From positions 182 through 64,181 of the forward strand of contig CAZVYJ010000011.1 of the NCBI GenBank assembly GCA_964631565.1: DNA of 64,000 bases, read 5' to 3'. Below, piece after piece: positions 1 to 43,844 of the stretch. The notes beneath the pieces were generated by a model. The model worked only from the letters and a program-made list of their open reading frames with translations. It searched no databases and was not told the DNA's origin. This stretch comes from an uncultured Planctomycetaceae bacterium. Its GTDB lineage: Bacteria > Planctomycetota > Phycisphaerae > SM23-33. The position numbers and the translations under genes were made by a program. The number at the start of each line of letters is the position of its first letter. Within the stretch, counting starts at the first letter, position 1.

Positions 1-2
1 CA

Positions 3-436: not shown

Positions 437-485
437 ATCTATTAAGCTAACACATCAGAGTGCTTTTCTGAAAGGCTGTAACGCT

Positions 486-1538: not shown

Positions 1539-1616
1539 GGGCACTGTGGCCACTGGAGGCTTAACACGTTTTAGTTAATTTAACTTTTATTCCGGAGATC
1601 GAGAAAGGAGACTTCT

Positions 1617-2354: not shown

Positions 2355-2386
2355 GTAAATAAGTTGTGTAAAAGAATGCCGGAAAA

Positions 2387-2410
2387 GCTCAGGATCGGGT
2401 TCCTCTGAGC
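2387..2410 (+). ncRNA. conserved 3'-UTR bulged hairpin motif, copy A
   Basis: GCTCAGGATCGGGTTCCTCTGAGC between PEP-CTERM stop and terminator. Confidence 0.55.
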
Positions 2411-2413
2411 GAG

Positions 2414-2447
2414 GCGGGTCGTCCCCTAAGGGGCGGCCCGCTTTTTT
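2414..2447 (+). terminator. intrinsic terminator
   Basis: GCGGGTCGTCCCC-TAA-GGGGCGGCCCGC-TTTTTT. Confidence 0.85.
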
Positions 2448-2578
2448 GTACTGTCGTTCATGGGGAAAATTACAGCAGGGCATCATCATAATGCAATATT
2501 TTAGAGTAAGTAACAGGCGGAAGAAGGTATTTGCCATAATAACGGGAATAACTATAGGTTTTCGGAGCAGTTTATAAC

Positions 2579-2634
2579 TTGACAGGAGAAAATTTTAAGT
2601 TATTCTATATCTATATTGAACATATCTAGAATAA
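2579..2634 (+). promoter_or_regulatory. sigma70-type promoter of regulator 2 with inverted repeat over the -10
   Basis: TTGACA(2579-2584)-N16-TATTCT(2601-2606); TTATTCTA(2600-2607)...TAGAATAA(2627-2634). Confidence 0.65.
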
Positions 2635-2660
2635 GTATCTGCTGATATCGAGAAAGTCGT

Positions 2661-3716: not shown

Positions 3717-3793
3717 GAGTCGCCGTGACTCTTGGAGGCATTAAACAGGTTTATTTGACTTATTTTTTCCGGAGATTGAGAAAGGAGACTTTT

Positions 3794-4549: not shown

Positions 4550-4587
4550 GACGACCCCAACGCAGATTCGCAGTAAAAAAGCTTTGC

Positions 4588-4612
4588 GCTCAGAAGAAAG
4601 GTTCCTCTGAGC
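4588..4612 (+). ncRNA. conserved 3'-UTR bulged hairpin motif, copy B
   Basis: GCTCAGAAGAAAGGTTCCTCTGAGC. Confidence 0.55.
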
Positions 4613-4619
4613 AACCGAG

Positions 4620-4650
4620 GTGGCCGTCCCTCAGGGACGGCCGCTTTTTT
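4620..4650 (+). terminator. intrinsic terminator
   Basis: GTGGCCGTCCC-TCA-GGGACGGCCGC-TTTTTT. Confidence 0.85.
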
Positions 4651-4868
4651 ATACCACTATTACAGCATCGGGGTCGATATTCCAATCACCATGGATTTAC
4701 TATTATACAGCTTAAATCAAAAGAGAAATCCGTTTTTTGCAATTCAGTCGAACCCGGTTAACGATAAGAAGGTTTAATCAGCTAATATCAGTCTGCTGAA
4801 GTATTCGTGTGAATCCGGCGGTTCACGTGACGGGAACCCATATTTGAAAAACAAAAGGGAGCGACACG

Positions 4869-6863
4869 ATGAATCGAATCGCGGGAATTCAAGCCGGGAA
4901 GTTCAGACGGGTATCGTGGTATGCTGCCGCAGTCATAATTTTGATAATGGAAAGCGTGGTTATGGCAGGCGACTTGACGCTCAAGTACGATTCCAGCAAA
5001 TATCCTGAATTGAAAATGGGATATAACGACCTTAACGGTGACGGCAAGGCCGATACGCTGATTACCAGATGGAACGACAAAATTATCGCCTTTATCAGCG
5101 ACGGCGGGCAACTGCCGTGGAAGGCGGAGGACGAAAAGCAGGACTGGAACGCCTACTTCAACAAGGCGTACAACGTCGGCCAGGACCCGCCGGTGACATG
5201 GAACCCTGTAAGGGCCAGGTGGGGCGACTATACGATTCTGGTGGACCGCGACGGCGACGGCAGATTTGATTCCATCGGCGACTGGTGCTACAAGACATTC
5301 GACCTCAACAAAGACGGCTCGCCCGAGGCCGAGTACTATCATCTTTTCCCGGGGCACTACAGTAACAAGTTTCACATCAATTTCAGCGGCGAACGGGACA
5401 TGTCGTGGCTGGACTTCGGCGGCTTCTGCTACTGCCCTGACGAGCAGCGATACGTCAACGGCAGCCAGTACATCATGAACGTTCACGGCAACGGAATGTT
5501 CCTCAACAGCTACGCCCGGAATACACAGTGCGCGTGGGAAAATCCCATCGCATGGTATGACTTCGATTTCGACGGCCGAACCAACATGGTCATGCGGGCC
5601 GCGGATACCTTCTACGAGGACGGCAAGGATCACGTTTCCTACAGCGGCTGCCTGAGCGAGCTCGAGCTGGCGTTCGAGCTGAATTCGAACACCAGCGAGA
5701 AACGGTGGCACTCCCTGGACATGCAGTTGACGTTCTTCAACTACGACAGGGGCAAGGGGCTGGATTACAAATCCTTCACCGATGCGCTGGCCTTCATGAC
5801 GGGTCTTAAGGGTTCGGAGTTTCTCTCCGAGAATATGGCCGAGGCGAGGCTGCAGACCGTCCGCAGATATCTTCCTTACATGGACGGCTACAAAATCGGG
5901 ATGGATTTCGACGGCTGGGCCGGCGTATGGCTGCTGTTCGATGAAGACGATGACGACAACCGCTGGGAAGAAATGTTCTCCAGGCACGAGCCGGCCGATT
6001 GGCACGGCTACGCAGACCAAATCGGCGACCGCACCGAGATCGACAGGGACTACGGCGGCAAGGGCAAGCTTTACATCGCCAAATTTGACGGCCGCATTCA
6101 CCTGTTCCATGCGGAATTCGCCGTATGGGATGTCGATTGTCTCGCCATGTATAAGGGTGCGTGCGACAGGGGCGCTACCCCGGAGGGGCCGAACCCGCCG
6201 GCCGGTATTCGATATCCGCGCGTGAGATATTCCGACACCAACGGCAACGGTTTTATCGACAGGATTGAATATATGACCGTCGAATACGGCAAGGAAGGCG
6301 AAACCGAAAAAATCGACCGGGTCGTTTCGCTCCTGGATTACGCGGACGAGAAGAACCCCAAACCGGATGTGTGCGAACTGTTCGATCCTCGCGTGGACAC
6401 GAAAGTAACCGGCTGGACCGTCGCCAAATGGGACGGGAAGCCCTTCACGGCGAAGGATTTCAAGGGTACGCCCGTCAAGGCCGGCTTCGACAGGGTATAC
6501 CAGTTTTACGGCCGGGTCTGCGACGGCATGTGGAGCGACGCCGAAAAACTCTATAAAACCGCCAGGGACCTGGGCCTGAACCGTTCAGAGGACCTGGACA
6601 AGGAACTGAAAGACACGTACACCAAAGATGAACTCGCCGCGCTGAAAGTGCTGGACATACCCAAAGGGTACTCGCGGCACCTTTCCGGCAAGACCAGGCG
6701 GGAAAAATACAACAACGGCTACTGGCTTAAGGAAAAAGTTTTCGCGGACATCCTTGAGTATTCCTCGCTCGACAATCGCACGCTGGAGAAGTATTTTTAC
6801 ACCGGCAGGATCGATGAACTCTGCGAATACGTCAGGGCCAACTACAAGCCGCAGCAGAAATAA
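4869..6863 (+). CDS. hypothetical, probably exported protein with several DxDxDG calcium-binding-like motifs
   Basis: 664 aa ORF with GGGAG SD, signal-like N-terminus, motifs DLNGDGKAD, DRDGDGRFD, DLNKDGSPE, DFDFDGRTN, DTNGNGFID. Confidence 0.75.
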   Translation: MNRIAGIQAGKFRRVSWYAAAVIILIMESVVMAGDLTLKYDSSKYPELKMGYNDLNGDGKADTLITRWNDKIIAFISDGGQLPWKAEDEKQDWNAYFNKAYNVGQDPPVTWNPVRARWGDYTILVDRDGDGRFDSIGDWCYKTFDLNKDGSPEAEYYHLFPGHYSNKFHINFSGERDMSWLDFGGFCYCPDEQRYVNGSQYIMNVHGNGMFLNSYARNTQCAWENPIAWYDFDFDGRTNMVMRAADTFYEDGKDHVSYSGCLSELELAFELNSNTSEKRWHSLDMQLTFFNYDRGKGLDYKSFTDALAFMTGLKGSEFLSENMAEARLQTVRRYLPYMDGYKIGMDFDGWAGVWLLFDEDDDDNRWEEMFSRHEPADWHGYADQIGDRTEIDRDYGGKGKLYIAKFDGRIHLFHAEFAVWDVDCLAMYKGACDRGATPEGPNPPAGIRYPRVRYSDTNGNGFIDRIEYMTVEYGKEGETEKIDRVVSLLDYADEKNPKPDVCELFDPRVDTKVTGWTVAKWDGKPFTAKDFKGTPVKAGFDRVYQFYGRVCDGMWSDAEKLYKTARDLGLNRSEDLDKELKDTYTKDELAALKVLDIPKGYSRHLSGKTRREKYNNGYWLKEKVFADILEYSSLDNRTLEKYFYTGRIDELCEYVRANYKPQQK

Positions 6864-6910
6864 ATACGGGCAGTCCACAGGGCGGCGCGGCACATATCGA
6901 GGAGAATAAA

Positions 6911-7930
6911 ATGGATAAGGTTCGTCTCGGAATCATCGGATACGGAACCATGGGGGAGATTTACTCTGAAGGCATAGCCGAGTTTCACAATGCCGAGGTA
7001 GCAGCCGTTGCGGACCATAACCCGGAACACCTTGCGAGCGCCCTGCAGAAGCACGGCTGCGATGTGTTCGAGGATTACCGCGATATGTACTCGTGGGGAA
7101 AGCTGGACGCGGTGGTAATCATACTGCCGGACTTCCTGCACAAAGAGGCTGTCATCGAGGCGGCCGCCGCGGGACTGCACATTCTCGTGGAGAAACCTTT
7201 CGCCATGTCGGTTCAGGATGCGCTCGAGATGGTCGAGGCCGTCCGCAGGGCGAAAGTCAAATGCATGATCGAGTTCATGAATCGCTGGAGCGCGCCGTTT
7301 GTGAAGGCGAAGGAGCTGGCCGACGCCGGCAAGTTCGGATTCGTGACATCCGTTTCCGGCGATTTGAACGATTCCATATTTGTGCCCACCAGAATGCTGC
7401 GATGGTCCGCCCGCAGCACGCCCGGCTGGTTCCTCATGTGCCACACATTCGACCTGGCTACGTGGATTACCGGAAAGAAGCCGGCCAGCGTCTTCGCCAC
7501 GGCAGCGAAGAAGATTCTTGCGGCAAAGGGCATCGACACATACGACGCGATTGAAGCCTTGGTCAATTTCACCGACGGCTCCATCGGCCGATTCACCAAC
7601 AACTGGGTTCTGCCCGAGGCGATACCGCTGCTTTATGAACTCAAGCTGCGCATCGTCGGCTCAGACGCCGCGATTGATATCAACACCTCCGACCAGCAGC
7701 TGCACTATTTCGACCAGAATCGCTATGAGCACACATTCAACGCATGGGGCAAGGTGCTCGGCCGGCCTTACGGGCACTGCTATGACATGCTGCGAACTTT
7801 CGTCGATTGCATCCAGCGCGACCTGCCCGTGCCGATACCGGCCGAGACCGGGCTGAAAAATACCATTTTCATGGAAGCCGTGCATAAATCGGTTGAAACG
7901 GGCAAACCCGTCAGCATTGAAAATTACTGA
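6911..7930 (+). CDS. Gfo/Idh/MocA family NAD(P)-dependent oxidoreductase
   Basis: VRLGIIGYGTMG Rossmann motif, HILVEKPFA motif, GAGGAG SD. Confidence 0.9.
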   Translation: MDKVRLGIIGYGTMGEIYSEGIAEFHNAEVAAVADHNPEHLASALQKHGCDVFEDYRDMYSWGKLDAVVIILPDFLHKEAVIEAAAAGLHILVEKPFAMSVQDALEMVEAVRRAKVKCMIEFMNRWSAPFVKAKELADAGKFGFVTSVSGDLNDSIFVPTRMLRWSARSTPGWFLMCHTFDLATWITGKKPASVFATAAKKILAAKGIDTYDAIEALVNFTDGSIGRFTNNWVLPEAIPLLYELKLRIVGSDAAIDINTSDQQLHYFDQNRYEHTFNAWGKVLGRPYGHCYDMLRTFVDCIQRDLPVPIPAETGLKNTIFMEAVHKSVETGKPVSIENY

Positions 7931-8183
7931 GCAGTCTTACGTAAGTTTGTTTCCCGTCTGGTGGCCTTCCTAGGCCGCCGGAATTGCAGAAAGCTACCAA
8001 CCACCCCGAAAAGCGGTTTTCGAGGGTTTCCATGCAAGTTCTGCTCTGAGGCTGAGTATCCCTTGATAGCCTCCAGCTCGCGACATCTCTTTCATCTCCT
8101 TGATTCAAATGATGTTATGTTCATAACTATCGCGAGTTTTGAACTGGTATCATTTTATTTACAAGTTCGGAGTATTTTCGCTC

Positions 8184-8239
8184 TTGACTCATTGCTGGCT
8201 TATGGTAATCTAGATTACATAGTTGGAAATCTAGATTAC
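8184..8239 (+). promoter_or_regulatory. promoter of regulator 3 with tandem palindromic operator
   Basis: TTGACT(8184-8189)-N16-TAATCT(8206-8211); perfect palindrome GTAATCTAGATTAC (8205-8218) and near copy GAAATCTAGATTAC (8226-8239), 21 bp apart. Confidence 0.7.
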
Positions 8240-8274
8240 ACTTGCCGGCAACAGGATTAGTGGGAAATACATAA

Positions 8275-9342
8275 ATGGTAGTAGGTGAAAAAGGTAAATA
8301 TCTGGAAGTCGTTTCCGCTCTGCGCAGCAGCATCCTCGACGGTGTGTACAAGCCAAGCAGCAAACTTCCTACCCGCTCGGAGATGGTGGCGGAGTTTGGT
8401 GTCAGCAACGCCACTATTCAAAGAGCTCTTACCAGGCTGGCGAATGACGGTTTTGTTTTCGCCCGCCCGTCCGGCACGTTTGTTGCGGAGTGCCCGCCGC
8501 ATTTGTGCAACTACGGGATGGTGACTCCCGTCACCTCGCAGTGGTCGCTGCTGCACACAGCCGTTCGCAGGGCGGCCGGCATAGTGCAGAAAGGCGGCGA
8601 TATCCGGTTCAATGAGTACATCACTTCTTCTGAAGTTGCGGCCAGGGAAGATGTGATACGCCTGAACAGGGACGTCACCAGCCATTGTCTCGGCGGGCTG
8701 ATTATCCTGGGCGATTACGCCATGCATGATATTGAAGGCACGCCGGCCCTCGAGCGTAAAAATTTCCCGCGCGTGCGTATACATCCTTTGCCGGAATCTT
8801 CCATTCCTGTTGTTTGCCTGGACGTGACCGGTTCGTTTATTCCGAAAGCGACGGAATACCTGACGTCAAGGGGCCACCGGCGGATTGCACATCTGCGATT
8901 GATTTCAGAAGTCAATTGGCGGAAGGAATTCGATGCGGCCCTGAAAAGGACCGGCATCGAGATCAGGCCGTACTGGGTGCAGTCGGTTTACGCCAGGGCC
9001 ATAGATGAAACGACCACAAGCGTCATATCCCTGCTGATGCAGTTGGAAGGGGACAAGCGCCCCGACGCATTGATAATTCACGACGACAACCTTGTCGAGC
9101 TTGCCGTAGGCGGGCTGCTGGCGGCCGGCGTCAAGGTGCCCGACGACCTGGAAATAGTCGCGCACTCAAACTATCCATCGCAGGCGCCCAGCGTTCTGCC
9201 GATGGCGCGGCTGGGCCTCGACTGCCGCATGTTCCTGAAAAAGTGCGTGGAAGTGATAGAACTGCAGCGCAGCGGACAAACCCCTCCGGCGAAGACGAAT
9301 ATCCCGGCGGTGTTTGAGGACGAACTTGCGGATGAAGTCTGA
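8275..9342 (+). CDS. GntR/LacI-type regulator, paralog 3
   Basis: LPTRSEMVAEFGVSNATIQRALTRL wHTH; RPDALIIHDDNL. Confidence 0.9.
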   Translation: MVVGEKGKYLEVVSALRSSILDGVYKPSSKLPTRSEMVAEFGVSNATIQRALTRLANDGFVFARPSGTFVAECPPHLCNYGMVTPVTSQWSLLHTAVRRAAGIVQKGGDIRFNEYITSSEVAAREDVIRLNRDVTSHCLGGLIILGDYAMHDIEGTPALERKNFPRVRIHPLPESSIPVVCLDVTGSFIPKATEYLTSRGHRRIAHLRLISEVNWRKEFDAALKRTGIEIRPYWVQSVYARAIDETTTSVISLLMQLEGDKRPDALIIHDDNLVELAVGGLLAAGVKVPDDLEIVAHSNYPSQAPSVLPMARLGLDCRMFLKKCVEVIELQRSGQTPPAKTNIPAVFEDELADEV

Positions 9343-9461
9343 ATAAATCGCGTTTCGAGCGTGATTGGTCGCTTTCGTGAAGGAAAAGAAGGGATCGGAT
9401 AACAGTTCGAAGGAATATTGAAAAGTCATTTCCTGGCTGCTTCCAGAAAGGAGAAGAAAAG

Positions 9462-10616
9462 ATGAGAAGGGTTAATGTTCTATTGGCATTTTTTACAATG
9501 CTGGCTCTGGCTGTTCCGGCGGCTGCCGCGTGGGTCGATAACACTGCGTCCTGGACGGCACAGGGCCTTTCCGGCGGTTTGTTGATCACGGATACCGACA
9601 ACAATACGATGTATAACATCAGCGGCAGCACGATCCGGAGCTACGATGCCGGCACCGACACATGGACGACGCTGACCTCCGCGAGCGGCGGCGGTTACAC
9701 AGGCGAATGGTGTGTGGGTGCTTACGCACAGGGCAAAATCCTGCTGAAAAGCCACAATCACAACTACATCCAGATTTATGACATCGCCACGGACAGCTGG
9801 TCCAACAGCACGCTGCCCAGCACCACTTACAGTTACGGCCACGGCCAGGGTGCGGTTTACAACCCCGCCGACGGCAAGTTCTATACCTTCTGGACTTCCT
9901 ATTCGCCAGGCTACGAGCCTGTAGGAGCCGCATATGATGTGGCGACAGGCACGTGGAGTGCAGACACAGCCTATGCCAATCAGGGGCCGAGGTATCTGTG
10001 GGGCCGCATGCAGTCGGTCACCGTGGGCACCACGAATTACTTCCTGAGAGATGAAAATTATTTTCTTGGCGACAGGAACAGTGGAGATGGAACTATCAGA
10101 CTGGGTTCATATGATTTGACTCAGGGCATTCCGACAGACCAAAGCACCTTGAATTACACCATCCTGTCGTTCGACATGGGCGGTGGTGCGGAACTGCATT
10201 ACAATGGTTTCACTCACCTGGGAGAAACCTACTACTCCGGTGGCGGCGGCTGGCCGGCTGCTTTTTATGACGATGCCGGGGTTGCTTTCGGCACCCAGAT
10301 GATGGCCGTCGATGGTACAGACATCTATATTGTGGGTGAATGTTTCACATGGTGGGGCTGCACCGATCCGCCGGAAGGTAGCGAACATCTTGAGGTTGTC
10401 GTTTATCATACCGCCACAGGCACGTGGGAAAACTTCGAAGACGTGCCGTGGTCCGGAAATGCCTACCGCAACCATACTGTAACGGTTTGCAACGGTGTTC
10501 TGTACGTTCAGGACGGCAGCGAGTTCTATGCCTACAACCTAGTTCCCGAGCCGGCGACTGTGTCGCTGCTGGGCCTCGGCGGTTTGGGACTCCTTATCCG
10601 TCGCAGACACAGATAA
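9462..10616 (+). CDS. secreted PEP-CTERM protein, Kelch-like beta-propeller
   Basis: signal peptide; repeated YDxxTDTW / YDIATDSW / YDVATGTW / YHTATGTW blades; VPEPATVSLLGLGGLGLLIRRRHR. Confidence 0.85.
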   Translation: MRRVNVLLAFFTMLALAVPAAAAWVDNTASWTAQGLSGGLLITDTDNNTMYNISGSTIRSYDAGTDTWTTLTSASGGGYTGEWCVGAYAQGKILLKSHNHNYIQIYDIATDSWSNSTLPSTTYSYGHGQGAVYNPADGKFYTFWTSYSPGYEPVGAAYDVATGTWSADTAYANQGPRYLWGRMQSVTVGTTNYFLRDENYFLGDRNSGDGTIRLGSYDLTQGIPTDQSTLNYTILSFDMGGGAELHYNGFTHLGETYYSGGGGWPAAFYDDAGVAFGTQMMAVDGTDIYIVGECFTWWGCTDPPEGSEHLEVVVYHTATGTWENFEDVPWSGNAYRNHTVTVCNGVLYVQDGSEFYAYNLVPEPATVSLLGLGGLGLLIRRRHR

Positions 10617-10642
10617 ACTGAATATTCTGCAACAGACTTAGT

Positions 10643-10666
10643 GCTCAGAATCGGGTTCCTCTGAGT
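10643..10666 (+). ncRNA. conserved 3'-UTR bulged hairpin motif, copy C
   Basis: GCTCAGAATCGGGTTCCTCTGAGT. Confidence 0.55.
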
Positions 10667-10670
10667 ATGG

Positions 10671-10702
10671 TGTGGCCGTTCTTTACGGGGCGGCCACATT
10701 TT
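10671..10702 (+). terminator. intrinsic terminator
   Basis: TGTGGCCGTTC...GGGCGGCCACA-TTTT. Confidence 0.75.
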
Positions 10703-10750
10703 ATTGCGCGAAATCCCAATTTGTAGGACAATTATCTGAAAACATTCCCC

Positions 10751-10805
10751 TTGACAGCCTTGTAGTTACACATTATTCTATATATCAGAAAGATAAACAG
10801 AATAA
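10751..10805 (+). promoter_or_regulatory. sigma70-type promoter of regulator 4 with inverted repeat
   Basis: TTGACA(10751-10756)-N17-TATTCT(10774-10779); TTATTCT(10773-10779)...AGAATAA(10799-10805). Confidence 0.7.
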
Positions 10806-10820
10806 GTATTGGAAAATTCG

Positions 10821-11942
10821 ATGGAACTAACCGGCAAGGCCAAATACGAAGACGTCGTCCACAGATTGCGAAGCGATATTGTGAAAGGCGTTTATTCACC
10901 GGGGAACCGGCTGCCGAATCGATCTGATATCGGCCAGCAGTTCGGCGTGGGGATGGCCACAGTTCAGAAAGCGCTCGACATGCTGACTGAGGATGGTTTT
11001 ATACGTGCGCGGGCCGGAGCTGGAACTTTCGTGGTGGACAACCCGCCGCACCTTTCTGATTACGCGCTGATTATCCCCGCCGCTAGCCTGTGGTCGCGTT
11101 GCTATTCTACATTGCGAGCGGCGGCGACGATTGTCGCCGATGGGGAAAAGGTGAAATTCAAGGAATATAATCCTTCCCGCGATATTGGCAACCGGTCTGA
11201 AATTATCAGATTGTCCAGCGACGTCGTGAATCACAGGCTGGCCGGTATTATCGTTGCGGGTTTCGCCGACGAACTCGTAGGGACGCCGGCCATTGAGATG
11301 CCCGGCATTCCACGCGTGCTTCATCAGCCCATGCCGGGATTTGATTACCCTGTTGTGTGCCTTGACGGTTTTCTGGACAAGGCGACCGAATATCTCAAAT
11401 CTCGCGGCCGGAAACGGGTAGCGCACCTTTGCCTGGATTTTGCATGGACCGAAATAGATGCGTTCATCCAGCAATTGAAACAGAGGCTGGACGACGTCAG
11501 AAATTATTGGGTTCAGCCGCTACGCATAGGTGAGAGATTCCACGGCACCAAGCACGTGGTTGATCTGCTCATGCAACTGGAAGGGGACAAGCGCCCTGAC
11601 TCGCTGATAATCCACGATGACAACTTGGTAGACCAGGCGGTAGCGGGTCTGCTGGCGGGGGGCATAAAAGTACCGGACGAAATAGAGGTCGTAGCCATGG
11701 CGAACTTCCCGTCTTTTCAGCAGTCCGCCTTGCCCATCAAGCGGATCGGCTATGACTTCCGGCAGGTGCTCGAGAAATCGCTCGAAATCATGCAGATGGA
11801 GCGTTCGGGACAGACGCCGCCGAGACTGACGAAACTTACGGCGACGTATGAAGAAGACGTTGACTACGGGCCAGCATATGCAGGGCCTGATGAGTTGGAG
11901 ATGAGAGGCATCATTTTATCTGGACCCAAAACGGGAGAATGA
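10821..11942 (+). CDS. GntR/LacI-type regulator, paralog 4
   Basis: MELTGKAKYEDVV.. start aligns with paralog 2; LPNRSDIGQQFGVGMATVQKAL wHTH. Confidence 0.9.
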   Translation: MELTGKAKYEDVVHRLRSDIVKGVYSPGNRLPNRSDIGQQFGVGMATVQKALDMLTEDGFIRARAGAGTFVVDNPPHLSDYALIIPAASLWSRCYSTLRAAATIVADGEKVKFKEYNPSRDIGNRSEIIRLSSDVVNHRLAGIIVAGFADELVGTPAIEMPGIPRVLHQPMPGFDYPVVCLDGFLDKATEYLKSRGRKRVAHLCLDFAWTEIDAFIQQLKQRLDDVRNYWVQPLRIGERFHGTKHVVDLLMQLEGDKRPDSLIIHDDNLVDQAVAGLLAGGIKVPDEIEVVAMANFPSFQQSALPIKRIGYDFRQVLEKSLEIMQMERSGQTPPRLTKLTATYEEDVDYGPAYAGPDELEMRGIILSGPKTGE

Positions 11943-11954
11943 AAGGAGAAAAAC

Positions 11955-12536
11955 ATGTTCTTGAGATTCAAGAAACCACTGATGCTGTGGTTTGGGCTGG
12001 TTGCCCTGATTGCATTTGTGTCGCCGGCTGGAGCATCGACGCTTATTCCGCAGAGCCAGCTAACCGCGTGGGCGAGCACTCTGTTTGACGGGATATATCC
12101 CGGCTCAAACACGGTTGACGGCAACGTCGGAACAATATGGGCGGCCGGCAACACAGACAATTCGTATCTGCGGATTGACCTCGGCGCTACCTACACTGTT
12201 GATATGTTCACGATCGAAGGCAGGGCTGACAACACAGACCGTCCGAACGCCTTCAAACTGTGGGTAACCGACACGCTGACCGACGGAGATATCACGGGGT
12301 GGACGGACCCGGTGCTGGAATCCAATTTCCTCAGTCAGCAGGCGGTGCAGGAGATTAATTTCACCCCGACTTCCGGCCAGTATATGTATGTGTTGCTGGT
12401 CGGTACCCCTTACAACTACAGCGGCATGTCCAGGGGCTGCATTGCCGAGTTCAACGCTTACCAGGTGCCCGAGCCGGCGACTATGTCACTCCTCGGCCTC
12501 GGCGGCCTGGGACTGTTTATCCGTCGCAGGAAGTAA
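11955..12536 (+). CDS. secreted PEP-CTERM protein, discoidin/F5-8 type C (CBM32-like) domain
   Basis: signal peptide; NTVDGNVGTIW...YLRIDLGATYTVDMFTIEGR is typical of discoidin domains; VPEPATMSLLGLGGLGLFIRRRK. Confidence 0.85.
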   Translation: MFLRFKKPLMLWFGLVALIAFVSPAGASTLIPQSQLTAWASTLFDGIYPGSNTVDGNVGTIWAAGNTDNSYLRIDLGATYTVDMFTIEGRADNTDRPNAFKLWVTDTLTDGDITGWTDPVLESNFLSQQAVQEINFTPTSGQYMYVLLVGTPYNYSGMSRGCIAEFNAYQVPEPATMSLLGLGGLGLFIRRRK

Positions 12537-12554
12537 ATGAGTCTTCTGCTGTTT

Positions 12555-12578
12555 GCTCAGAACCGGGTTCCTCTGAGC
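12555..12578 (+). ncRNA. conserved 3'-UTR bulged hairpin motif, copy D
   Basis: GCTCAGAACCGGGTTCCTCTGAGC. Confidence 0.55.
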
Positions 12579-12587
12579 ATTTTCAAA

Positions 12588-12621
12588 GTGGCCGTTCCGT
12601 TACGGGACGGCCACGTTTTTT
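12588..12621 (+). terminator. intrinsic terminator
   Basis: GTGGCCGTTCCG-TTA-CGGGACGGCCAC-GTTTTTT. Confidence 0.85.
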
Positions 12622-12635
12622 ATCGAATTCCTTAC

Positions 12636-12800
12636 TGAAGACCACGGGTTTACCCGTGGATGAATGCCGCCGACAACGGCAGTTGCCGTTGTCGGCTCCT
12701 GAATCCCGGTGTGTGTGAGTAAAATGCACATACGCCCGGATTCAGGTCAGCTGCGACTGCAGCTGTGAAGGTAAGTACCCCGGCTTTAGCCGGGGGAATC
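12636..12800. mobile_element. putative non-autonomous IS200/IS605-type (palindrome-associated) element
   Basis: Five consecutive hairpins; the terminal ones CCACGGGT-TT-ACCCGTGG and CCCCGGCT-TT-AGCCGGGG resemble IS200/IS605 subterminal palindromes; no ORF; ends approximate. Confidence 0.5.
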
Positions 12801-12990
12801 TATGCAATTTTACCATCAGCTCGAATATCTGACAGGTTCCATGCTTTTCTGACTGCTGCACTTTGATCCCCCCTCAAAAAAACATGCGGCGCGCAACTCA
12901 TTCTTGATTCAGAGGTTTTGTTCAATGACCTCCCGGGTTTTTAATGCCTGTCATTTTGCACAAAAACGATAGGCACACAAATTTTTCCAA

Positions 12991-13018
12991 TTGACTTTTT
13001 CTAAGAATCAATTATTAT
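12991..13018 (+). promoter_or_regulatory. sigma70-type promoter of regulator 5
   Basis: TTGACT(12991-12996)-N16-TATTAT(13013-13018) in an AT-rich tract. Confidence 0.55.
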
Positions 13019-13047
13019 AAATTAAAGTGTTATTGACTTAGAACATA

Positions 13048-14121
13048 ATGTCAGGAATGTATTCAGTGACACATTCTCCTAGAGCCAAATATCACGATCT
13101 GGCGGCGACACTCAAAAGTGAGATTATTGAGGGTGTGTATTCTCCTGGCCATCGATTGCCTACGAGGCTGCAGATGGTTCAGCAGTATGGTGTGAGCGTT
13201 GCTACGGTGCAGCGGGCTCTCAATACGCTCCTTGACGATGGTTTCATCCGTGCGAAATCGCGAGCGGGGACATTCGTCGTGGACAATCCTCCTCACCTGT
13301 CGAATTTCGGTCTGGTCTTGTCGGCCGAGGGACAGTGGTCGCAATATTACCTGTCGATTCTTGAAGCGGCGAAAATGGTAGGTCTTGAGGAAAATGCTTA
13401 TCTGAAGGCTTATTTTACGTCAAGGCAGGTGGGGTTGCGGCAGGGGCTTGTAAGCTTGTGCGGTGACATATCCAACCACAGGCTTGGCGGGTTGATTATA
13501 GCCACGCCGACTGACAATCTGCATGACACGCCAGTGGTGCAGAAAAAGGATATGCCGCGAGTTCTTTTGTGCCCCTCAAATGAGAATGATATCCCGATTA
13601 TCAAGATAGACATGAATTCCTTCATGGACAAGGCTGTGGAGTATTTTTATTCCCGCGGCCGGCGACGCATCGCACACCTGTGCCTCGATTCGCTGTACAG
13701 GGTTGATAACGAGATAGATGACACGGTTCAGAAGCGGGGTATTGAGTACAGGCCTTACTGGGTGCAACTGGTCGGTTCCGGCCCCACCTTCAGAGGCGTG
13801 GCAAGCGTGGTCAATCTTCTCATGCACCTGGAAGGGGAGAATCGTCCGGATGCCATGCTCATTTACGACGACAACCTTGTCGAACACGTGGTCGGCAGCC
13901 TGATGAAGTTCGGCTTCAAGGTCCCGGACGACCTTGAGATTATCACGATGTGCAACTATCCGTCGCCCGTTTCGAGTCCGCTGCCGGTCAAAGATCTTGG
14001 GCTGGATTGCCGCATGGTTCTCAAAAAAGCCGTCGAGCTTATTGAAATGCAGCGGCTTGGACAGGAAGTGCCGTTAGTGGTTAAAGTGCCGGCCCTCTTT
14101 GATGAAGAAGTTGATCTGTAG
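13048..14121 (+). CDS. GntR/LacI-type regulator, paralog 5
   Basis: LPTRLQMVQQYGVSVATVQRALNTL wHTH; RPDAMLIYDDNL. Confidence 0.9.
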   Translation: MSGMYSVTHSPRAKYHDLAATLKSEIIEGVYSPGHRLPTRLQMVQQYGVSVATVQRALNTLLDDGFIRAKSRAGTFVVDNPPHLSNFGLVLSAEGQWSQYYLSILEAAKMVGLEENAYLKAYFTSRQVGLRQGLVSLCGDISNHRLGGLIIATPTDNLHDTPVVQKKDMPRVLLCPSNENDIPIIKIDMNSFMDKAVEYFYSRGRRRIAHLCLDSLYRVDNEIDDTVQKRGIEYRPYWVQLVGSGPTFRGVASVVNLLMHLEGENRPDAMLIYDDNLVEHVVGSLMKFGFKVPDDLEIITMCNYPSPVSSPLPVKDLGLDCRMVLKKAVELIEMQRLGQEVPLVVKVPALFDEEVDL

Positions 14122-14321
14122 TAATAATCGAGCATCGAACGAGGATGTAGTAATGCAGAAAGGAGGATGGTGATTTTAATTCGAAAGCCGTTCCCATTCA
14201 GAAGGGAAGTTTTGTGAATGTGCTTGTGGAGAATGAGCAGGGGAATCGCATGTAACGAAATTTAGAAATTTAGTGCTTAGCACAATTCATTTCTCTCTGG
14301 AGAAGAAAGGAGCTGTTCATT

Positions 14322-15365
14322 ATGAAAAGATTTAGAATTTTGCTAGGAGTCCTGTCTCTATCGGTGCTAGTTGTGCCGGCAAACGCTGGCTGGACGGAAG
14401 TGACCTCCAGCTGGAACGCCCAGGGTGTTGGAGATGGCTGGGGTCTGGTGTCTGACGGAACCACGCTGTATGCCTTCAACAACACCTCAGCCAAGGTGTA
14501 CGACGCCGCCACCGATACGTGGTCGGCTTTGGCATCGGCAACGAAAACGGTTCATGCTGCCGGCGACTCTAACGGCACGCAGGTTTATTACGACGACGGA
14601 AAGTTTTACTTCAGGACGCACGGCGGCAATGGAAGCTATATCAGCATCTACGATATAGCCAACAATTCGTGGAACCAGCCGGACATCGAACTCGGCAGCT
14701 ACAGCCCGTGTAACTATTCGCAAGGCACGGTTTATGATCCTACAACCGGTACACTGTGGTCGATATGGACGAGTTGGCAGGGCGGTACCGAATACCTCGG
14801 CTACAACTCGTATGACACCACGACCGGAACCTTTGGCACCGCCGCCGGCGGCACATGGGGATCGCCTGACAATTTCTCGGGCAAGATGCGGTTCGGCAAC
14901 AATCGGCCCGGCGTGATTGTCGATCTTGACGGCACCTATTACTACTACAAGCTGTCAGACCAGGGCACAAGTCCGTACATGCAGCGTGTAGCATTCGGCT
15001 GGGATGACCCGACGGAAGCAACGACGGAGACCCTGGCGCAGTTGACCGGCAATAGCACCAGTCTCGGCGACAGCGGCGCATGGGGCACCAGGCAGTTGGC
15101 CGTTTTGGGCACGGACATTTATGTCACCGGTGCTGACACGTCAGGCTTTTTCGCCGTGTATCATTGCGATACCAACGAGTGGGAAATACTCGAGTCCTAT
15201 AACAACGGCAGCGGCGGATATCGTACCCACACCATGGCCATTGCAGACGGCGTAGTTTACGTAGAAGACGGCAGCCAGTTCTTTGCCTACTCGATTCCCG
15301 AGCCGGCAACTATGTCACTCCTCGGTCTCGGTGGTCTCGGCTTGCTTATTCGCCGGAAAAGATAA
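14322..15365 (+). CDS. secreted PEP-CTERM protein, Kelch-like beta-propeller, paralog of 9462-10616
   Basis: AGGAG SD; YDAATDTW, YISIYDIANNSW, YRTHTMAIADGVVYVEDGSQFFAYSIPEP align with the 9462 protein. Confidence 0.85.
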   Translation: MKRFRILLGVLSLSVLVVPANAGWTEVTSSWNAQGVGDGWGLVSDGTTLYAFNNTSAKVYDAATDTWSALASATKTVHAAGDSNGTQVYYDDGKFYFRTHGGNGSYISIYDIANNSWNQPDIELGSYSPCNYSQGTVYDPTTGTLWSIWTSWQGGTEYLGYNSYDTTTGTFGTAAGGTWGSPDNFSGKMRFGNNRPGVIVDLDGTYYYYKLSDQGTSPYMQRVAFGWDDPTEATTETLAQLTGNSTSLGDSGAWGTRQLAVLGTDIYVTGADTSGFFAVYHCDTNEWEILESYNNGSGGYRTHTMAIADGVVYVEDGSQFFAYSIPEPATMSLLGLGGLGLLIRRKR

Positions 15366-15386
15366 GCCATTGTAGACCACATTTTT

Positions 15387-15410
15387 GCTCAGAACCGGGT
15401 TCCTCTGAGC
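15387..15410 (+). ncRNA. conserved 3'-UTR bulged hairpin motif, copy E
   Basis: GCTCAGAACCGGGTTCCTCTGAGC. Confidence 0.55.
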
Positions 15411-15419
15411 ATTTTCAAA

Positions 15420-15453
15420 GTGGCCGTTCCGTTACGGGGCGGCCACGTTTTTT
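15420..15453 (+). terminator. intrinsic terminator
   Basis: GTGGCCGTTCCG-TTA-CGGGGCGGCCAC-GTTTTTT. Confidence 0.85.
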
Positions 15454-15676
15454 ATTGCCCACAAGGCCGCCTGCCGGCCTCTAAAACGACAGCGCTATAT
15501 CTGTCATAAGTCCTTGTTTTGCGATGCCTGTCGCCGAGGCGACCTTGCGAGTTCCATAGGAAACTCGCGTGTCGAATCCGAAAGCATCGCTGTCGTACTA
15601 AAACTCGGAATTTCATTCGATATGCCTCCCGAATGAGCCGATAATACGCCAATAAGGCCATTTTTCGGGAGATGCC

Positions 15677-17518
15677 ATGTGTGGAATTGTCGGATACCTG
15701 GGGCCCAAACAGGCTTGCGGAATACTGATAGAAGGTCTTAAGCGACTTGAATATCGCGGCTATGACTCCGCCGGCGTATGCGTTTACTGCGACGGCAAGC
15801 TGGAGATCGAGAAAAGCCCCGGCAGAATCACCGTTCTCGAAGAGAAGATAGCTGCCGATTCATGCATGCGCACCGGCTCGGCCGGCATCGCGCACACACG
15901 CTGGGCCACTCACGGCGAACCGAACGAAGTGAACGCCCATCCGCACACCGACACGACCGGCAGAATCGCCGTCGTCCACAACGGCATCATCGAGAACTAC
16001 GCCACGCTTAAAAAGTTTCTCCAGAGCAAGGGGTGCGTCTTCGTGTCCGAGACGGACACGGAAGTGCTTGCGCACCTGGTGTCGCAGTTTTACAACGACG
16101 GGGCCGACTCGCTCGAGGAGGCCGTCCAGCTCGCGCTTCGCGAGGTCAGCGGCACCTACGGTATCGCCGTCATGTGCGCCGACGAGCCGGACAAAATAAT
16201 CGCCGCCCGCAAGGGCAGCCCGCTGATTATCGGCGTCGGCAAGAATGAATACGTTATCGCGTCCGACGCGTCGGCGATTATCGAGCATACCGCCAACGTG
16301 ATTTACCTGAACGACAACGAGATGGCCGTCATCACCCGCGACGGCATGCAGACGATGACCATCGACAACGTCCCGGTCAACAAGGAAGTCCAGCAGCTCG
16401 AGTGGTCGCTCGAGCAGATAGCCAAGGGCGGTTACGACCACTTCATGCTCAAGGAAATCTTCGAGCAGCCCGATGCGATAAGGACGACCCTCAGCGGGCG
16501 AATCGACCGGCGTGAAAAGCGCATCATACTCGGCGGGCTTCAGGGCGTCATACGCGAACTGATCCGCGCGAGGCGGATAATTCTCACCGCGTGCGGCACG
16601 GCATGGCACGCCGGGCTGATAGGCGAGTACCTCTTCGAAGACCTCGCCCGCATCCCGGCCGAGGTCGAATACGCCAGCGAGTTCCGCTATCGCAACCCGA
16701 TAGTCGAGGAAGGAACCGTCGTCCTGGCGATAAGCCAGTCGGGCGAGACTGCCGACACGCTGGCAGCCCTGCGCGAAGCCAGGGACAAGGGCGCGATGGC
16801 GCTCGGCATCGTCAACGCCGTAGGCTCGACGATAGCGCGCGACACCGACGCCGGCGTATACCTGCACGCCGGGCCGGAAATCGGCGTGGCGTCCACCAAG
16901 GCGTTCACCTGCCAGATCGTCGTCGAGACGCTGATGGCCCTGATGCTGGGCCGGCGGAGGTTCATGTCGCAGCAGAAGCTCAGCACGTATATCGACGCGC
17001 TGCTGGAGATTCCCGGCCAGATAGAGCAGATACTCACGCAGTCAGACGCGATTAAGGAAATCGTGGGCGATTATGTGAAGTACAACAACTGGCTGTTCCT
17101 CGGCCGCGGCTACAACTACCCCATAGCGCTGGAAGGCGCGCTGAAGCTCAAGGAAATCAGCTACATTCACGCCGAGGGCCTGCAGGCCGCCGAGATGAAG
17201 CATGGCCCGATAGCACTCATACACGAAGGCATGCCGGTTATCTTCATCGCTCCACGCTGCGCGACGTACGAGAAGATTGTCGGCAACATCGAGGAAGTCC
17301 GCGCCCGGAAGGGCCGCGTGGTGGCCGTGGCGACCGAAGGCGACGAGAACATCCGCAAGTACTGCGACCATGTCATATACGTTCCGGACTGCCCCGCACC
17401 GCTCCAGCCTCTGCTTACGGTCATTCCGCTGCAGCTTATCGCTTATCACGCAGCCGTCGCCAGAGGCTGCAACGTGGACAAACCGCGCAACCTCGCCAAA
17501 AGCGTGACCGTGGAGTAG
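15677..17518 (+). CDS. glmS: glutamine-fructose-6-phosphate aminotransferase
   Basis: MCGIVGY start, HTRWATHG, SQSGETADT, PRNLAKSVTVE end. Confidence 0.98.
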   Translation: MCGIVGYLGPKQACGILIEGLKRLEYRGYDSAGVCVYCDGKLEIEKSPGRITVLEEKIAADSCMRTGSAGIAHTRWATHGEPNEVNAHPHTDTTGRIAVVHNGIIENYATLKKFLQSKGCVFVSETDTEVLAHLVSQFYNDGADSLEEAVQLALREVSGTYGIAVMCADEPDKIIAARKGSPLIIGVGKNEYVIASDASAIIEHTANVIYLNDNEMAVITRDGMQTMTIDNVPVNKEVQQLEWSLEQIAKGGYDHFMLKEIFEQPDAIRTTLSGRIDRREKRIILGGLQGVIRELIRARRIILTACGTAWHAGLIGEYLFEDLARIPAEVEYASEFRYRNPIVEEGTVVLAISQSGETADTLAALREARDKGAMALGIVNAVGSTIARDTDAGVYLHAGPEIGVASTKAFTCQIVVETLMALMLGRRRFMSQQKLSTYIDALLEIPGQIEQILTQSDAIKEIVGDYVKYNNWLFLGRGYNYPIALEGALKLKEISYIHAEGLQAAEMKHGPIALIHEGMPVIFIAPRCATYEKIVGNIEEVRARKGRVVAVATEGDENIRKYCDHVIYVPDCPAPLQPLLTVIPLQLIAYHAAVARGCNVDKPRNLAKSVTVE

Positions 17519-35704: not shown

Positions 35705-40009
<4,305 letters not shown>

Positions 40010-40012
<3 letters not shown>

Positions 40013-40217: not shown

Positions 40218-40589
<372 letters not shown>

Positions 40590-40718
40590 CTGCTTGGACT
40601 GAAGTTATACTCACACTCGGCATGTGGCCGAGAGTACTGGCGAGTATTTAAAAGCGGGCCGGCCGAACCCGGCCCCCAGGAAAAGTTGAGACCCCCCTAA
40701 GGGGGGAACGAGAGAGAA

Positions 40719-41195
40719 ATGGGATTCAAAAAGTTTACATCGTCGACGGATCAGCTGAAGCCTGATGAGATATATGGCAGCAAGCTCATCAGCAAGTTCA
40801 TCAACTGCATCATGGTGGACGGCAAGAAAATCGCCGCCCAGAAGATCGTTTACGGCGCGATGGACATCATCGCCAAGAAAATGCCCGAAACCACTCCGAT
40901 AGAGGTGTTCGAGAAGGCGATCAACAACATCAAGCCGCGCATCGAGGTCCGCTCCAAGCGAGTCGGCGGCGCGAATTATCAGGTTCCGATGCAGGTTAAT
41001 TCGAAGCGTCAGCTTTCGCTGGCGATTCGCTGGGTCCGTGAAGCCATCCGCGCCGGCAAAGGTCAGCCGATGAAGCAGAGGCTCGCGACTGAAATCATGA
41101 GCGCTTATAAGGGCGAAGGCGCCGCCATGACGACACGCGAAAACGTGCACCGCATGGCCGAGGCCAACAAGGCCTTTGCGCACTTCGCATGGTGA
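40719..41195 (+). CDS. rpsG: 30S ribosomal protein S7
   Basis: [29 protein letters not shown]. Confidence 0.99.
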
Positions 41196-41221
41196 TAGAG
41201 AATAAGTAACCATCACAGAAA

Positions 41222-41610
41222 GCTTCGGCTGATTTCTTTCGGCCGAAAAGCGGTGTTGGTTGAATCGTCCGCTGCCTCCGTCCCTAAGGGACGGAGAGCA
41301 GAATTGGGCGGACGATCCCGGTGGCGCATCTGCGTAGCGACCGTCGGGACTCAGAGAAGGTTTTCCAAGTGCTTCTGACGAAATGAGGCGTCGCCTGAAG
41401 GCGCCTCGCAGGCAAGCCGACGGCGGCTGCGTTTTGTTGGAGGCTCTCAGGGACCGCTTGAGATAAGACAACCGGGCCGGTCTGTTACGTGGGCTTGAAG
41501 CAGCAAAGCCTCTCAAGGCCGGTGTTCGTCCCTAAGGGATGACGGAAGAAGTTCCCTGATATGTTGGCGCGGCAGGTGCGCAGTGCATGTGTTTGCGCGG
41601 CGCAACCGCC
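41222..41610 (+). ncRNA. candidate large structured RNA in rpsG-fusA spacer (unassigned)
   Basis: Near-continuous stem-loops with long-range pairings and no credible ORF; see findings. Confidence 0.4.
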
Positions 41611-41633
41611 TTTGAGGTATAGGCTTAGGATAG

Positions 41634-43715
41634 ATGGCAAAGGACCTGAGAAAACTTCGTAATATCGGCATCATGGCACACATCGATGCCGGCAAGACTA
41701 CTGTGAGCGAACGTGTGCTGTTCTTCGCCGGACGCACCTACAAGATAGGCGAAGTGCACGAGGGCACGGCCGTGATGGACTATCTCCAGGAAGAGCAGGA
41801 GCGGGGCATAACCATCACCTCGGCCGCCACCACGCTCGAGTGGAAAGGCTGCACCATCAATCTTATCGATACCCCCGGCCACGTCGACTTCACCATAGAG
41901 GTCGAACGCTCGCTGCGTGTGCTCGACGGCGCGGTGGCCGTGTTCTGTGCGGTTGGCGGCGTCGAAGCCCAGAGCGAGACGGTGTGGCATCAGGCGGATA
42001 AGTATAAGGTTCCGCGGCTTTGCTTCATAAACAAGATGGACCGGGCCGGTGCCGATTTCGACATGGTGGTCGGCGAACTTACCTCTCGCCTGCACGCCAA
42101 CCCGATAGTTCTGCAGCTTCCGATGGGCAGCGGCGACGAAATGAAGGGACAGATAGACCTTGTCAGCCGGCAGGCGATATTCTATGACCCGGACAAGATC
42201 GCCACGAAAATGCGCATCGAACCTGTTCCGGATGAATATCACGAAATGGTAGAAATCGCTCGTCATGACCTGATTGAAAAGGCCGCCGAGTACGACGAAG
42301 AGGTAATGGACAAGTATGTCCACGAGCGTGAAATCAGCGAGGAAGAGATACATCGCGCGATCCGACACGGCACGGTCACCGGCAAGATTCACCCGGTGCT
42401 TTGCGGCTCGGCCCTGAAGCACATGGGCGTCCGCCTGCTTCTCGACGCCGTCGTAAGATACCTGCCCAGTCCGCTGGACGTTCCGCCGGTCGAAGGCCAC
42501 GACCTGTCGAGGGGCAAGGAGAACCAGATAATCAGACGAAACCCGGACCCCAGCGAGCCTTTTTCGGCCCTGGTGTTCAAAATTACTTCCGACCAGCATG
42601 GCGACCTGAACTTCACCCGCATATACAGCGGCACGCTGAAGTCCGGCTCGAGAGTGCTCAACAGCACGCAGGACCGCAAGGAAATCGTCTCCCGCATATG
42701 GGAAATGCACGCGAAGCAGCGTACCCAGCGGGAAGAGGCCGTCGCGGGCGATATCGTGGCGCTGGTGGGCCTGAAGCAGTCCATCACCGGCGACACACTG
42801 TGCGACCCGAAGCATCCGATTCTGCTGGAGCGACTCGACTTCCCCGAGCCGGTCATCACCATGTCGATAGAGCCTAAAACCAACGCCGACAAGCAGAAGC
42901 TCGTCGAGTCGCTTTATACGCTGCGGCGGGAAGACCCCAGCTTCATGTACCGCTGGGACGAGGAAACCGGCCAGACGACCATTTCCGGCATGGGCGAGCT
43001 GCATCTGGAAATCATCAAAAACAAGCTGGTTCGCGATATGGGCGTGGACGTTACCGTCGGCAGGCCCAAGGTGGCCTACAAAGAGACGATTCGCGGTTCG
43101 GCCGAGGCGGAAGGACGGTTTATTCGCCAGACTGGCGGCCGGGGCCAGTACGGCGTGGCCGTCCTGCGGGTCGAATCGCATACCCCCGAGGCCGGCGAAG
43201 AGAGCATTATTTTCGAGGATGCCACCAAGGGCGGCGTGATCCCGAGGGAGTACATTCCGTCGGTCGAAAGAGGCGTCAGGGACGCCGCCACAAGCGGGCC
43301 GCTTGCGGGCTATCCCATGCAGAATCTTAAGGTTACGTTACTTGACGGCAAGTATCACCCCGTTGACAGCAGCGACATCGCCTTCCAGCAGGCAGGCGCC
43401 CTGGCCTTCAACGAGGCGGTCCGAAAGGCCTCGCCCATATTCCTGGAGCCGATTATGCGGCTTCAGACCACCGTACCGGAAGAGTACCTGGGTGCGGTTA
43501 CCGGCGATTTGAACAGCCGGCGGGCGGTAATCAAGGAAATGGAGCACAGAGGGCACTTCCGGGTGCTTACGGCGGAAGTTCCGCTGTCTGAATTATTTGG
43601 CTATTCGACGCAGCTTAGGTCGCTTACCCAGGGACGCGGGACCAGCACAATGGAGCCGCACGTGTATGCTCCGGCGCCCTCTCAGGTAAGCGAACAGATA
43701 TTGCGTCTGGTTTAG
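41634..43715 (+). CDS. fusA: elongation factor G
   Basis: [35 protein letters not shown]. Confidence 0.99.
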
Positions 43716-43753
43716 ATAAGATGAAAAAAACTGAAAAAATCGTGGGTCCATAA

Positions 43754-43781
43754 TTGACAGTTACTTGCGCATCCGTATGCT
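43754..43781 (+). promoter_or_regulatory. internal promoter upstream of rpsJ
   Basis: TTGACA(43754-43759)-N16-TATGCT(43776-43781). Confidence 0.6.
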
Positions 43782-43844
43782 GGGTGGACTCTGTATTTTC
43801 CCGTCGCCTTTAATGGTTGGGAACCACGGTTGGAGTATGGCTGA

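Follow-up and report, generated by a model that had tools for sequence, protein, structure and literature searches.

Elongation factor G (EF-G) is among the most abundant proteins of bacteria, and to our knowledge the matching of its synthesis to ribosome production is understood in detail only in Escherichia coli, where it takes the form of translational coupling controlled by ribosomal protein S7. The repression exerted by S7 in that species reportedly includes EF-G synthesis, as described by Dean, Yates and Nomura in 1981. Among ribosomal-protein leaders, the S2-binding rpsB-tsf leader controls a translation-factor gene and the L10 leader acts from a distance.

In the E. coli str operon, S7 represses translation, and its operator is a three-stem junction with 5'-CCA and 5'-UUGGR elements and a lower helix UGUAA/UGAAU, a structure confined to Gammaproteobacteria (PMC3616713). 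An attenuator between rpsG and fusA has been reported in streptococci (PMC2965389), and in 'Candidatus Pelagibacter' an rpsL motif sometimes precedes rpsG or fusA (PMC2704228); both are presumed to respond to S7.

Here we describe what occupies the rpsG-fusA position in a stretch of Planctomycete DNA (the window, meaning the whole 64,000 nucleotides (nt) that were analysed). A sequence-only reading had pointed to a 438-nt non-coding gap between the two genes, heavily base-paired and with coordinates that proved exact (Table 1), and had proposed either a structured RNA of no assigned family, linked to fusA or to the str transcript, or the relic of an intron or MITE. The first proposal is borne out by the lack of any Rfam match and by conservation and covariation in more than 40 loci, always at the same position; the second fails, as set out below. 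The genes of the plus strand run rpoC (35705-40012), rpsL (40218-40589), rpsG, fusA, rpsJ (from 43845) and rplC/rplD. The S7 reading frame ends canonically in ...NKAFAHFAW and a stop codon, and the EF-G N terminus from 41634 is likewise canonical, so the gap is genuine and does not stem from a mis-called start. Furthermore, the full spacer is covered with 0 mismatches by contigs of two independent DNA metagenome studies (anaerobic digester and bioreactor sludge) and is thus no assembly artefact.

The spacer is unusually long, and the remark that it is normally short holds: in 66 other bacterial loci it measures 16-250 nt except in three, with a median of about 68 nt. Folding of the plus strand yields -195.1 kcal/mol, whereas dinucleotide shuffles come to -164.3 +/- 6.6 (z = -4.66, with none of 100 shuffles equally stable), which confirms the impression of a strong fold, and the minus strand gives z = -4.07. 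The 27-codon open reading frame (ORF) described as the only one in the spacer is an ATG ORF, and further ORFs of 41, 25 and 33 codons appear once GTG and TTG starts are allowed. None of them is conserved in the comparison with relatives, and the 27-codon one lies within a segment that is absent from the closest relative (L081).

Table 1. Features of the rpsG-fusA region, in coordinates of the window
Feature	Coordinates	Strand	Evidence and remarks
rpsG (ribosomal protein S7)	40719..41195	+	ORF and translation; homologues: Pfam PF00177; upstream neighbour of the element
Whole rpsG-fusA spacer, 438 nt, non-coding	41196..41633	+	Coordinates, ORF list, fold z = -4.66
Tentative P0, 5' strand AACCATCAC	41208..41216	+	Could pair with GTGTTGGTT 41253-41261; would compete with P1; in the minimum free energy (MFE) fold of the window
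hp0, GC-rich hairpin GCTTCGGCTGA...TCGGCCGAAAAGC	41222..41251	+	5' of the core; hairpin here in nearly all loci
Conserved core, P1 through P5	41247..41523	+	Covariance-model match, 132.1 bits
P1, 5' strand CGGT	41251..41254	+	Pairs with ACCG 41471-41474 and closes the four-way junction; 98% of cells pair, invariant
J1/2 joining strand GTTGGTTGAA	41255..41264	+	Consensus gnuGnnUgAA, 41 sequences
P2, TCGTCCGC 41265-41272 / GCGGACGA 41308-41315	41265..41315	+	5 of 8 pairs changed on both sides
P3, TCCCGGTG/CCGTCGGGA, variable tip	41316..41349	+	UCCCG/CGGGA versus CCCCG/CGGGG alternation
P4	41350..41462	+	P4a CTCAG 41350-41354 / TTGAG 41458-41462; P4b from GG 41359-41360 / CC 41454-41455
J4/1 joining strand ATAAGACA	41463..41470	+	Consensus AUARGACA, near-invariant; part of the 27-nt probe
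P1, 3' strand ACCG	41471..41474	+	Pairs with CGGT
P5, GCCGGTCT 41476-41483 / AGGCCGGT 41516-41523, variable tip	41476..41523	+	100% of cells pair
P6 hairpin TCGTCCC-TAA-GGGATGA	41524..41543	+	Strong; 1-3 nt past P5 in almost every locus; many stem sequences
P7 small hairpin GGAA-GAAG-TTCC	41544..41555	+	In many loci, not all; variants GGGG/CCCC, AGAGG/CCUCU
Poorly conserved 3' tail	41556..41633	+	Runs to the fusA start codon
fusA (EF-G)	41634..43715	+	ORF and translation, Pfam families of homologues; rpsJ next at 43845

Relatives were collected through a protein search with S7 and then with a degenerate 27-nt DNA pattern taken from the conserved block. The protein search returned S7 homologues at 97% and at about 70-79% identity, and all five S7-fetched relatives on long enough contigs have rpoC-rpsL-rpsG, a long spacer of 338-431 nt and fusA-rpsJ. 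When these relatives are aligned, the most striking invariant block reads CCGCTTGAGATA(A/G)GACAACCGGGCCGG(T/C)CTG. The 27-nt pattern recovered 37 stretches in the JGI metagenome collection, all in the same orientation, with the conserved block 170-500 nt past the S7 stop and 160-290 nt ahead of the EF-G start, spacers of 338-689 nt and S7 proteins 65-88% identical to that of the window; three of the loci sit on contigs that end before fusA. In 43 related loci from metagenomes and metagenome-assembled genomes (MAGs) a homologous element is present as a single copy, and wherever the upstream gene is visible the element is flanked by rpsG and fusA and keeps its orientation. On one JGI contig (L082, 535-1332), S7 is called as 265 rather than 158 amino acids, which may be a read-through or frameshifted call into the spacer.

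One locus, L091, has no rpsG in the roughly 390 nt available 5' of the element and fusA. Over its positions 1-330 a 70-nt unit (cgggcacactacgaacgaagaaccgtcgtttgtagtgacgccgtgaggcttttcttcaagaatgccctta) is repeated in tandem about four times; a TATAAT box comes next, and the contig begins inside the repeat. Since on this side the contig breaks off within tandem repeats, rpsG may lie further upstream, and we dropped the locus as proof that the element moves with fusA without rpsG, an idea with which it is compatible.

The distribution of the element is limited to a single lineage of Phycisphaerae, which comes from digesters, sludge, sediments and similar habitats. The motif-bearing MAG L088 carries the NCBI label Phycisphaerales, and other S7 homologues bear the labels Phycisphaerae, Sedimentisphaerales or Planctomycetota. 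A GTDB scan with S7 gave, among the matches listed, only distant genomes at 70% identity or less, and the nearest of those listed (L001, L002, L005-L007 and L009-L011; Tepidisphaerales, Phycisphaerales and other MAGs) have no EF-G match within 3 kb after rpsG. Neither a profile hidden Markov model (HMM) nor a covariance model found a match in 80 other GTDB bacterial str loci, which include Gimesia, Phycisphaera mikurensis, Tepidisphaerales and candidate phyla radiation (CPR) bacteria whose spacers are long; the Gimesia spacer is occupied by a plain terminator. As for the arrangement of these genomes, the str operon of the eight nearest listed is broken after rpsG (from 3478) and fusA lies elsewhere, rpsG being followed by unrelated genes, an FAD-type oxidoreductase on the opposite strand in L001 and serS in L002. 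The long CPR spacers, at L013 3441-3880 (Taylorbacteria, 439 nt) and L030 3441-3819 (Nomurabacteria, 378 nt), gave no element match.

Comparative analysis of the related loci yields a consensus architecture of a four-way junction, P1-P4, followed by the hairpins P5, P6 and often P7, on which RNAalifold runs on two independent alignments and a column-by-column check agree. P2, P3 and P4 abut without spacer nucleotides, which leaves J1/2 and J4/1 as the sole junction strands. Around 69 of 200 consensus positions are at least 90% conserved, mostly in the junction strands and P4a, and the helix tips vary freely in length. In the window, the variable tip of P2 is a CTCCGTCCC-TAA-GGGACGGAG hairpin, and P4 contains an internal loop with AGAA on its 5' side opposite GC on its 3' side. 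P4a is invariant or changes by G-U only, all five pairs of P4b covary, and P6 also covaries. P5, with the consensus GCCGGUCU/AGRCCGGY, begins one nucleotide past P1, and at hp0 RNAalifold places no more than a short helix. The long, window-specific P4b extension (~41361-41453) amounts to an insertion of about 80 nt, with its own hairpins, relative to the closest relative L081 (97% S7 identity), which has a longer P5 tip in its place; such differences indicate that the tips are free to vary.

A covariance model of P1-P5 (R1; 190 positions), with the window left out of its seed, matches the window over the full length of the model at 41247-41523 (cmsearch, 132.1 bits, E = 7.9e-28), and nhmmer matches it at 41246-41531 (E = 5e-36). 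R1 gave a single match in each motif locus, with scores of 60-158 bits, and besides the window it matched 13 other sequences from outside the seed. In a 42-row alignment fitted to the covariance model, 96.8% of cells pair and both partners have changed in 16 of the 38 pairs (111 cells), a result reached by 0 of 500 shuffles, and controls with slid partners are 24-54% paired. An independent MAFFT alignment of 27 sequences gives 95.6% of cells paired and 15 of 38 pairs changed on both sides (66 cells); here none of the 500 shuffles equals it on any of the five measures used, and partners slid by 1-3 columns are 27-54% paired. As many of the changed cells are inherited within a few sub-lineages, independent events are fewer than cells. 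The predicted helices P2, P3, P4b and P5 are well supported by covariation: a pair in P2 occurs as UA:21, CG:14 and UG:6, the closing pair of P3 as CG:27 and UA:13 and another of its pairs as GC:29 and AU:8, and P5 has three pairs changed on both sides (UA:16, CG:13, UG:11; GC:33, AU:6). P1 and P4a never vary, so that covariation neither supports nor contradicts them. Conserved G-U pairs (UG:35, GU:36, GU:23) would be A-C on the opposite strand and place the RNA on the gene (plus) strand. The element is, in short, a conserved single-copy feature with covarying helices, located on the gene strand and found at this position only.

The complementary segments that the sequence-only reading had listed are all present, and its fold survives in part. 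The hairpin at 41222-41251, ATCGTCCGC/GCGGACGAT (P2), TCCCG/CGGGA (P3) and the second CCC-TAA-GGG (P6) are conserved, whereas TCA-GAAG/CTTC-TGA, GAGGCG/CGCCTC, the TCAGGGA/TCCCTGA closure and ACCG-CTTGAGA/TCTCAAG-CGGT are specific to the window and clash with P4a and P5 of the covarying structure. For the window, the comparative structure comes to -156.9 kcal/mol and the unconstrained MFE to -166.9 kcal/mol, and the 3' half of the latter is built from window-specific pairings, like the fold first proposed. Additions to the consensus were not retained. An extended P1 suggested by RNAalifold (GUU with GAC across a bulged A) leaves variation in J1/2 uncompensated. P0, overall no better than shuffles (mean z = -0.2), stays tentative; a CAACA/UGUUG pairing that resembles it lies about 30 nt upstream in roughly a third of loci, and compensatory changes occur in a few (L109/L122 and L110). 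In an all-against-all covariation scan for extra tertiary pairs, the top pairs outside the model were phylogenetic correlations between helices.

None of the 4227 models of Rfam 15, its rpsL leader families included, matches the spacer, even at E <= 10. In the whole window, only two tRNAs reach the Rfam gathering score, and ARAGORN found 0 tRNA or tmRNA genes in 40500-42000, in agreement with the statement that hallmarks of RNase P, tmRNA and group I or II introns are lacking. The papers on the discovery of structured RNAs and ribosomal leaders that we searched make no mention of fusA or of a Planctomycete element. We regard the element as a new family of RNA within a general type already known, that of structured mRNA elements found in operons of translation genes; its size, position and target gene set it apart.

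The motif AAGCGGUG...GGUU(U/G)AAUCG together with CCGGGCC at first seemed similar to h28-h31 and the 1370-1390 region of 16S rRNA. As mimicry of rRNA, whether of the 16S S7 site, the 23S GTPase centre or the sarcin-ricin loop, this was rejected: an nhmmer profile of the motif gave no significant match to E. coli 16S and 23S rRNA (4.4-kb target; best 16S 925-944, E = 0.17; second 16S 1131-1162, E = 0.59; none in 23S), and the covariance model found nothing in the E. coli rrn operon. We keep the apparent resemblance as a lead only.

The hairpin tip CCC-TAA-GGG occurs five times in the window (at 2424, 40695, 41282, 41530 and 59724) against 0.19 expected. The copies at 2424 and 59724 are the tips of typical intrinsic terminators, and one lies in the rpsL-rpsG spacer, immediately before the rpsG start; the motif is a genome-wide habit for stable hairpin tips and no signature of the element. 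Elsewhere, positions 1-16000 carry five or more paralogous copies of a gene, spaced at about 2.2 kb (for example, 2263-2354, 4455-4546, 10525-10616, 12448-12526 and 15277-15355), whose 3' ends encode V-P-E-P-A-T-M-S-L-L-G-L-G-G-L-G-L-L-I-R-R, a sequence that resembles a PEP-CTERM sorting signal; each is then followed by a conserved hairpin pair, the second hairpin of which is a terminator.

The window spacer contains no sigma-70-like promoter, a weak test given how poorly Planctomycete promoters are known. Across 37 loci, a sigma-70-like -10 box lies upstream of the element in only 4, and a terminator-like site separates it from fusA in only 7 of the tails, which share neither a conserved terminator nor any other conserved block. 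The earlier claim that there is no terminator thus holds for conserved ones, with the exception in the window of one weak terminator-like site at 41415-41428, followed by GCGTTTTGTT (to ~41438), inside the P4b insertion. With so few promoters and terminators, the element appears to be an internal part of the rpsL-rpsG-fusA transcript in most genomes, and the evidence is against a separate gene with its own promoter and terminator. A metatranscriptome contig of a related strain covers 41225-41420 at low depth and could reflect DNA carry-over. Downstream, in the 129-nt fusA-rpsJ spacer (43716-43844), lies the region's one good match to a sigma-70-like promoter (TTGACA-16-TATGCT, 43754-43781), so that the S10 operon may have a promoter of its own.

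As to the distance from fusA, P1 lies at least about 160 nt from the ATG, the end of P5 100-148 nt from it in most loci, and the tail after P7 runs for about 70-150 nt. No conserved pairing between the element and the fusA start region, and no helix that would sequester the Shine-Dalgarno (SD) sequence, was found, and nucleotides of the start region are somewhat more often unpaired than those elsewhere (probability 0.46, against 0.34). Sequestration of the start codon was looked for and not observed.

The element is probably cis-regulatory in one way or another. Because of its position, its conservation in the manner of a binding site and the precedents, we favour, tentatively and without calling it probable, a cis-acting leader or intercistronic operator for fusA that is recognised by a component of the translation apparatus. 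It is from these features that we infer a regulatory role, the action on fusA and the identity of the binder. The spacer would be transcribed with the str genes on the plus strand and fold into the junction RNA; through recognition of the junction, such a component would adjust EF-G synthesis in a feedback loop. That the partner is a protein is plausible, if short of probable. Free S7, encoded immediately upstream, is the first guess, with EF-G itself or another ribosomal protein as alternatives, and S7 in particular is a possible but doubtful choice. A site located after rpsG would not obviously regulate S7 itself. The near-invariant positions in the junction strands and P4a, set against variable tips, have what looks from the alignment like the character of a specific binding site. 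Counting against the operator is the size of the core, which is much larger than known ribosomal-protein operators.

The nearest competitor, in our view unlikely, is a riboswitch, in which the four-way junction would serve as the aptamer, bind a small molecule or ion connected with the state of translation (GTP/GDP or (p)ppGpp, for instance) and tune fusA expression, perhaps by way of Rho-dependent termination or by acting on initiation over a long range. What is generally expected of a riboswitch, a conserved aptamer-like fold with covarying helices upstream of a gene, is found here. Near-invariant joining strands and internal loop, covarying helices and peripheral hairpins of variable length, always upstream of a single gene, make the element similar to four-way-junction riboswitches such as the cobalamin and yybP-ykoY Mn2+ classes, from which it differs in having no Rfam riboswitch match, no expression platform and no ligand hinted at by gene context. 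The lack of a match to any known class would suit a new one. However, no expression platform can be recognised, given how few tails have a terminator-like site and that none has a conserved anti-SD; a non-conserved tail of 70-150 nt separates the element from the ATG; the discovery papers searched show no candidate associated with fusA; and any ligand named is a pure guess. In a broader version, also unlikely, the element would represent a new RNA class, ligand-sensing or catalytic, that serves EF-G alone, whether a guanine nucleotide or (p)ppGpp riboswitch, an EF-G sensor or a self-processing RNA that cuts the fusA mRNA out of the str transcript.

We consider it less likely still that the element acts without a ligand in processing, stability or insulation, as an RNase cleavage site or protective 5' structure that would uncouple the amount and lifetime of EF-G mRNA from those of the S12/S7 mRNA. 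Such a role would fit a very stable, GC-rich RNA that has no conserved promoter or terminator and that, within a polycistronic transcript, separates genes for products not necessarily required in equal amounts, but nuclease barriers need stable hairpins and not ~69 near-invariant junction nucleotides maintained across genomes with S7 proteins of only 65-80% identity. A separate functional non-coding RNA, possibly catalytic, that is cut from the str transcript and acts elsewhere is improbable. Its roughly 200-370 nt and 7-8 helices are in the range of larger bacterial non-coding RNAs, and co-transcription with ribosomal genes would link its level to growth; against this, it never occurs away from the rpsG-fusA position, is present once per locus, has no conserved promoter or terminator of its own and matches no known ribozyme or non-coding RNA family. 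Finally, practically no credence is left for the relic of an inserted element (group I or II intron, MITE or REP-like repeat) or for chance self-complementarity in GC-rich DNA, which could appeal to the excess of CCC-TAA-GGG hairpins and to the insertion at ~41361-41453, but which is contradicted by the lack of a second copy, whether within the 64 kb of the window or the ~790 kb of loci that were fetched (repeat search, profile HMM and covariance model), by 0 matches to the 27-nt core pattern in IMG/VR viral contigs, by a place and orientation fixed across divergent genomes, by helices maintained through compensatory changes, and by the finding of no group I or II intron match in Rfam, no intron or repeat hallmarks in the element, no conserved ORF and complete flanking genes.

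Its roughly 40 distinct sequences, the strength of the covariation and the lack of any Rfam match make this a well-supported new RNA family, located where control of EF-G would act and in a poorly studied lineage of mostly uncultured Planctomycetota. Being large and complex for an mRNA leader, it is a good candidate for binding and structure studies, and the covariance model could serve to annotate it in Phycisphaerae genomes. Should an EF-G-dedicated ligand-sensing or catalytic RNA prove to be the answer, no cis-regulator dedicated to fusA would have been described before it, and a partner that is a small molecule or EF-G itself would mean that a core translation factor is regulated on a new principle.

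Among known systems, the S7 operator of E. coli is one of the closest to the operator that we favour: like it, the element is an intercistronic RNA of the same operon with a multi-helix junction, and a plausible target of S7. The two differ in position, the E. coli operator lying between rpsL and rpsG, where it overlaps the region of coupled S12-S7 translation, and the element here lying after the rpsG stop. They differ also in size and shape, a three-stem junction against a four-way junction with three hairpins that is two to three times larger, and have no detectable sequence homology. Determinants of the E. coli operator may be echoed in J1/2, which contains a conserved UGAAU and, in some loci including the window, a UUGGU that fits UUGGR; the consensus there is gnuGnnU and such 5-mers may arise by chance, so we treat the echo as a weak lead.

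The streptococcal and Pelagibacter elements are likewise conserved RNAs of the same operon, including the same position upstream of fusA. By their descriptions, the former is set apart as a terminator-based attenuator, whereas no conserved terminator is present here, and the latter as a small three-stem junction found only in SAR11 and marine metagenomes. The rpsB-tsf and L10 leaders are different RNAs bound by different proteins, with which the element would nevertheless share its logic: an excess of ribosomal protein binds a structured mRNA and lowers the synthesis of a co-transcribed elongation factor, from a binding site that, as in leaders of the L10 and rpsB-tsf type, may be separated from the start codon by over 100 nt.
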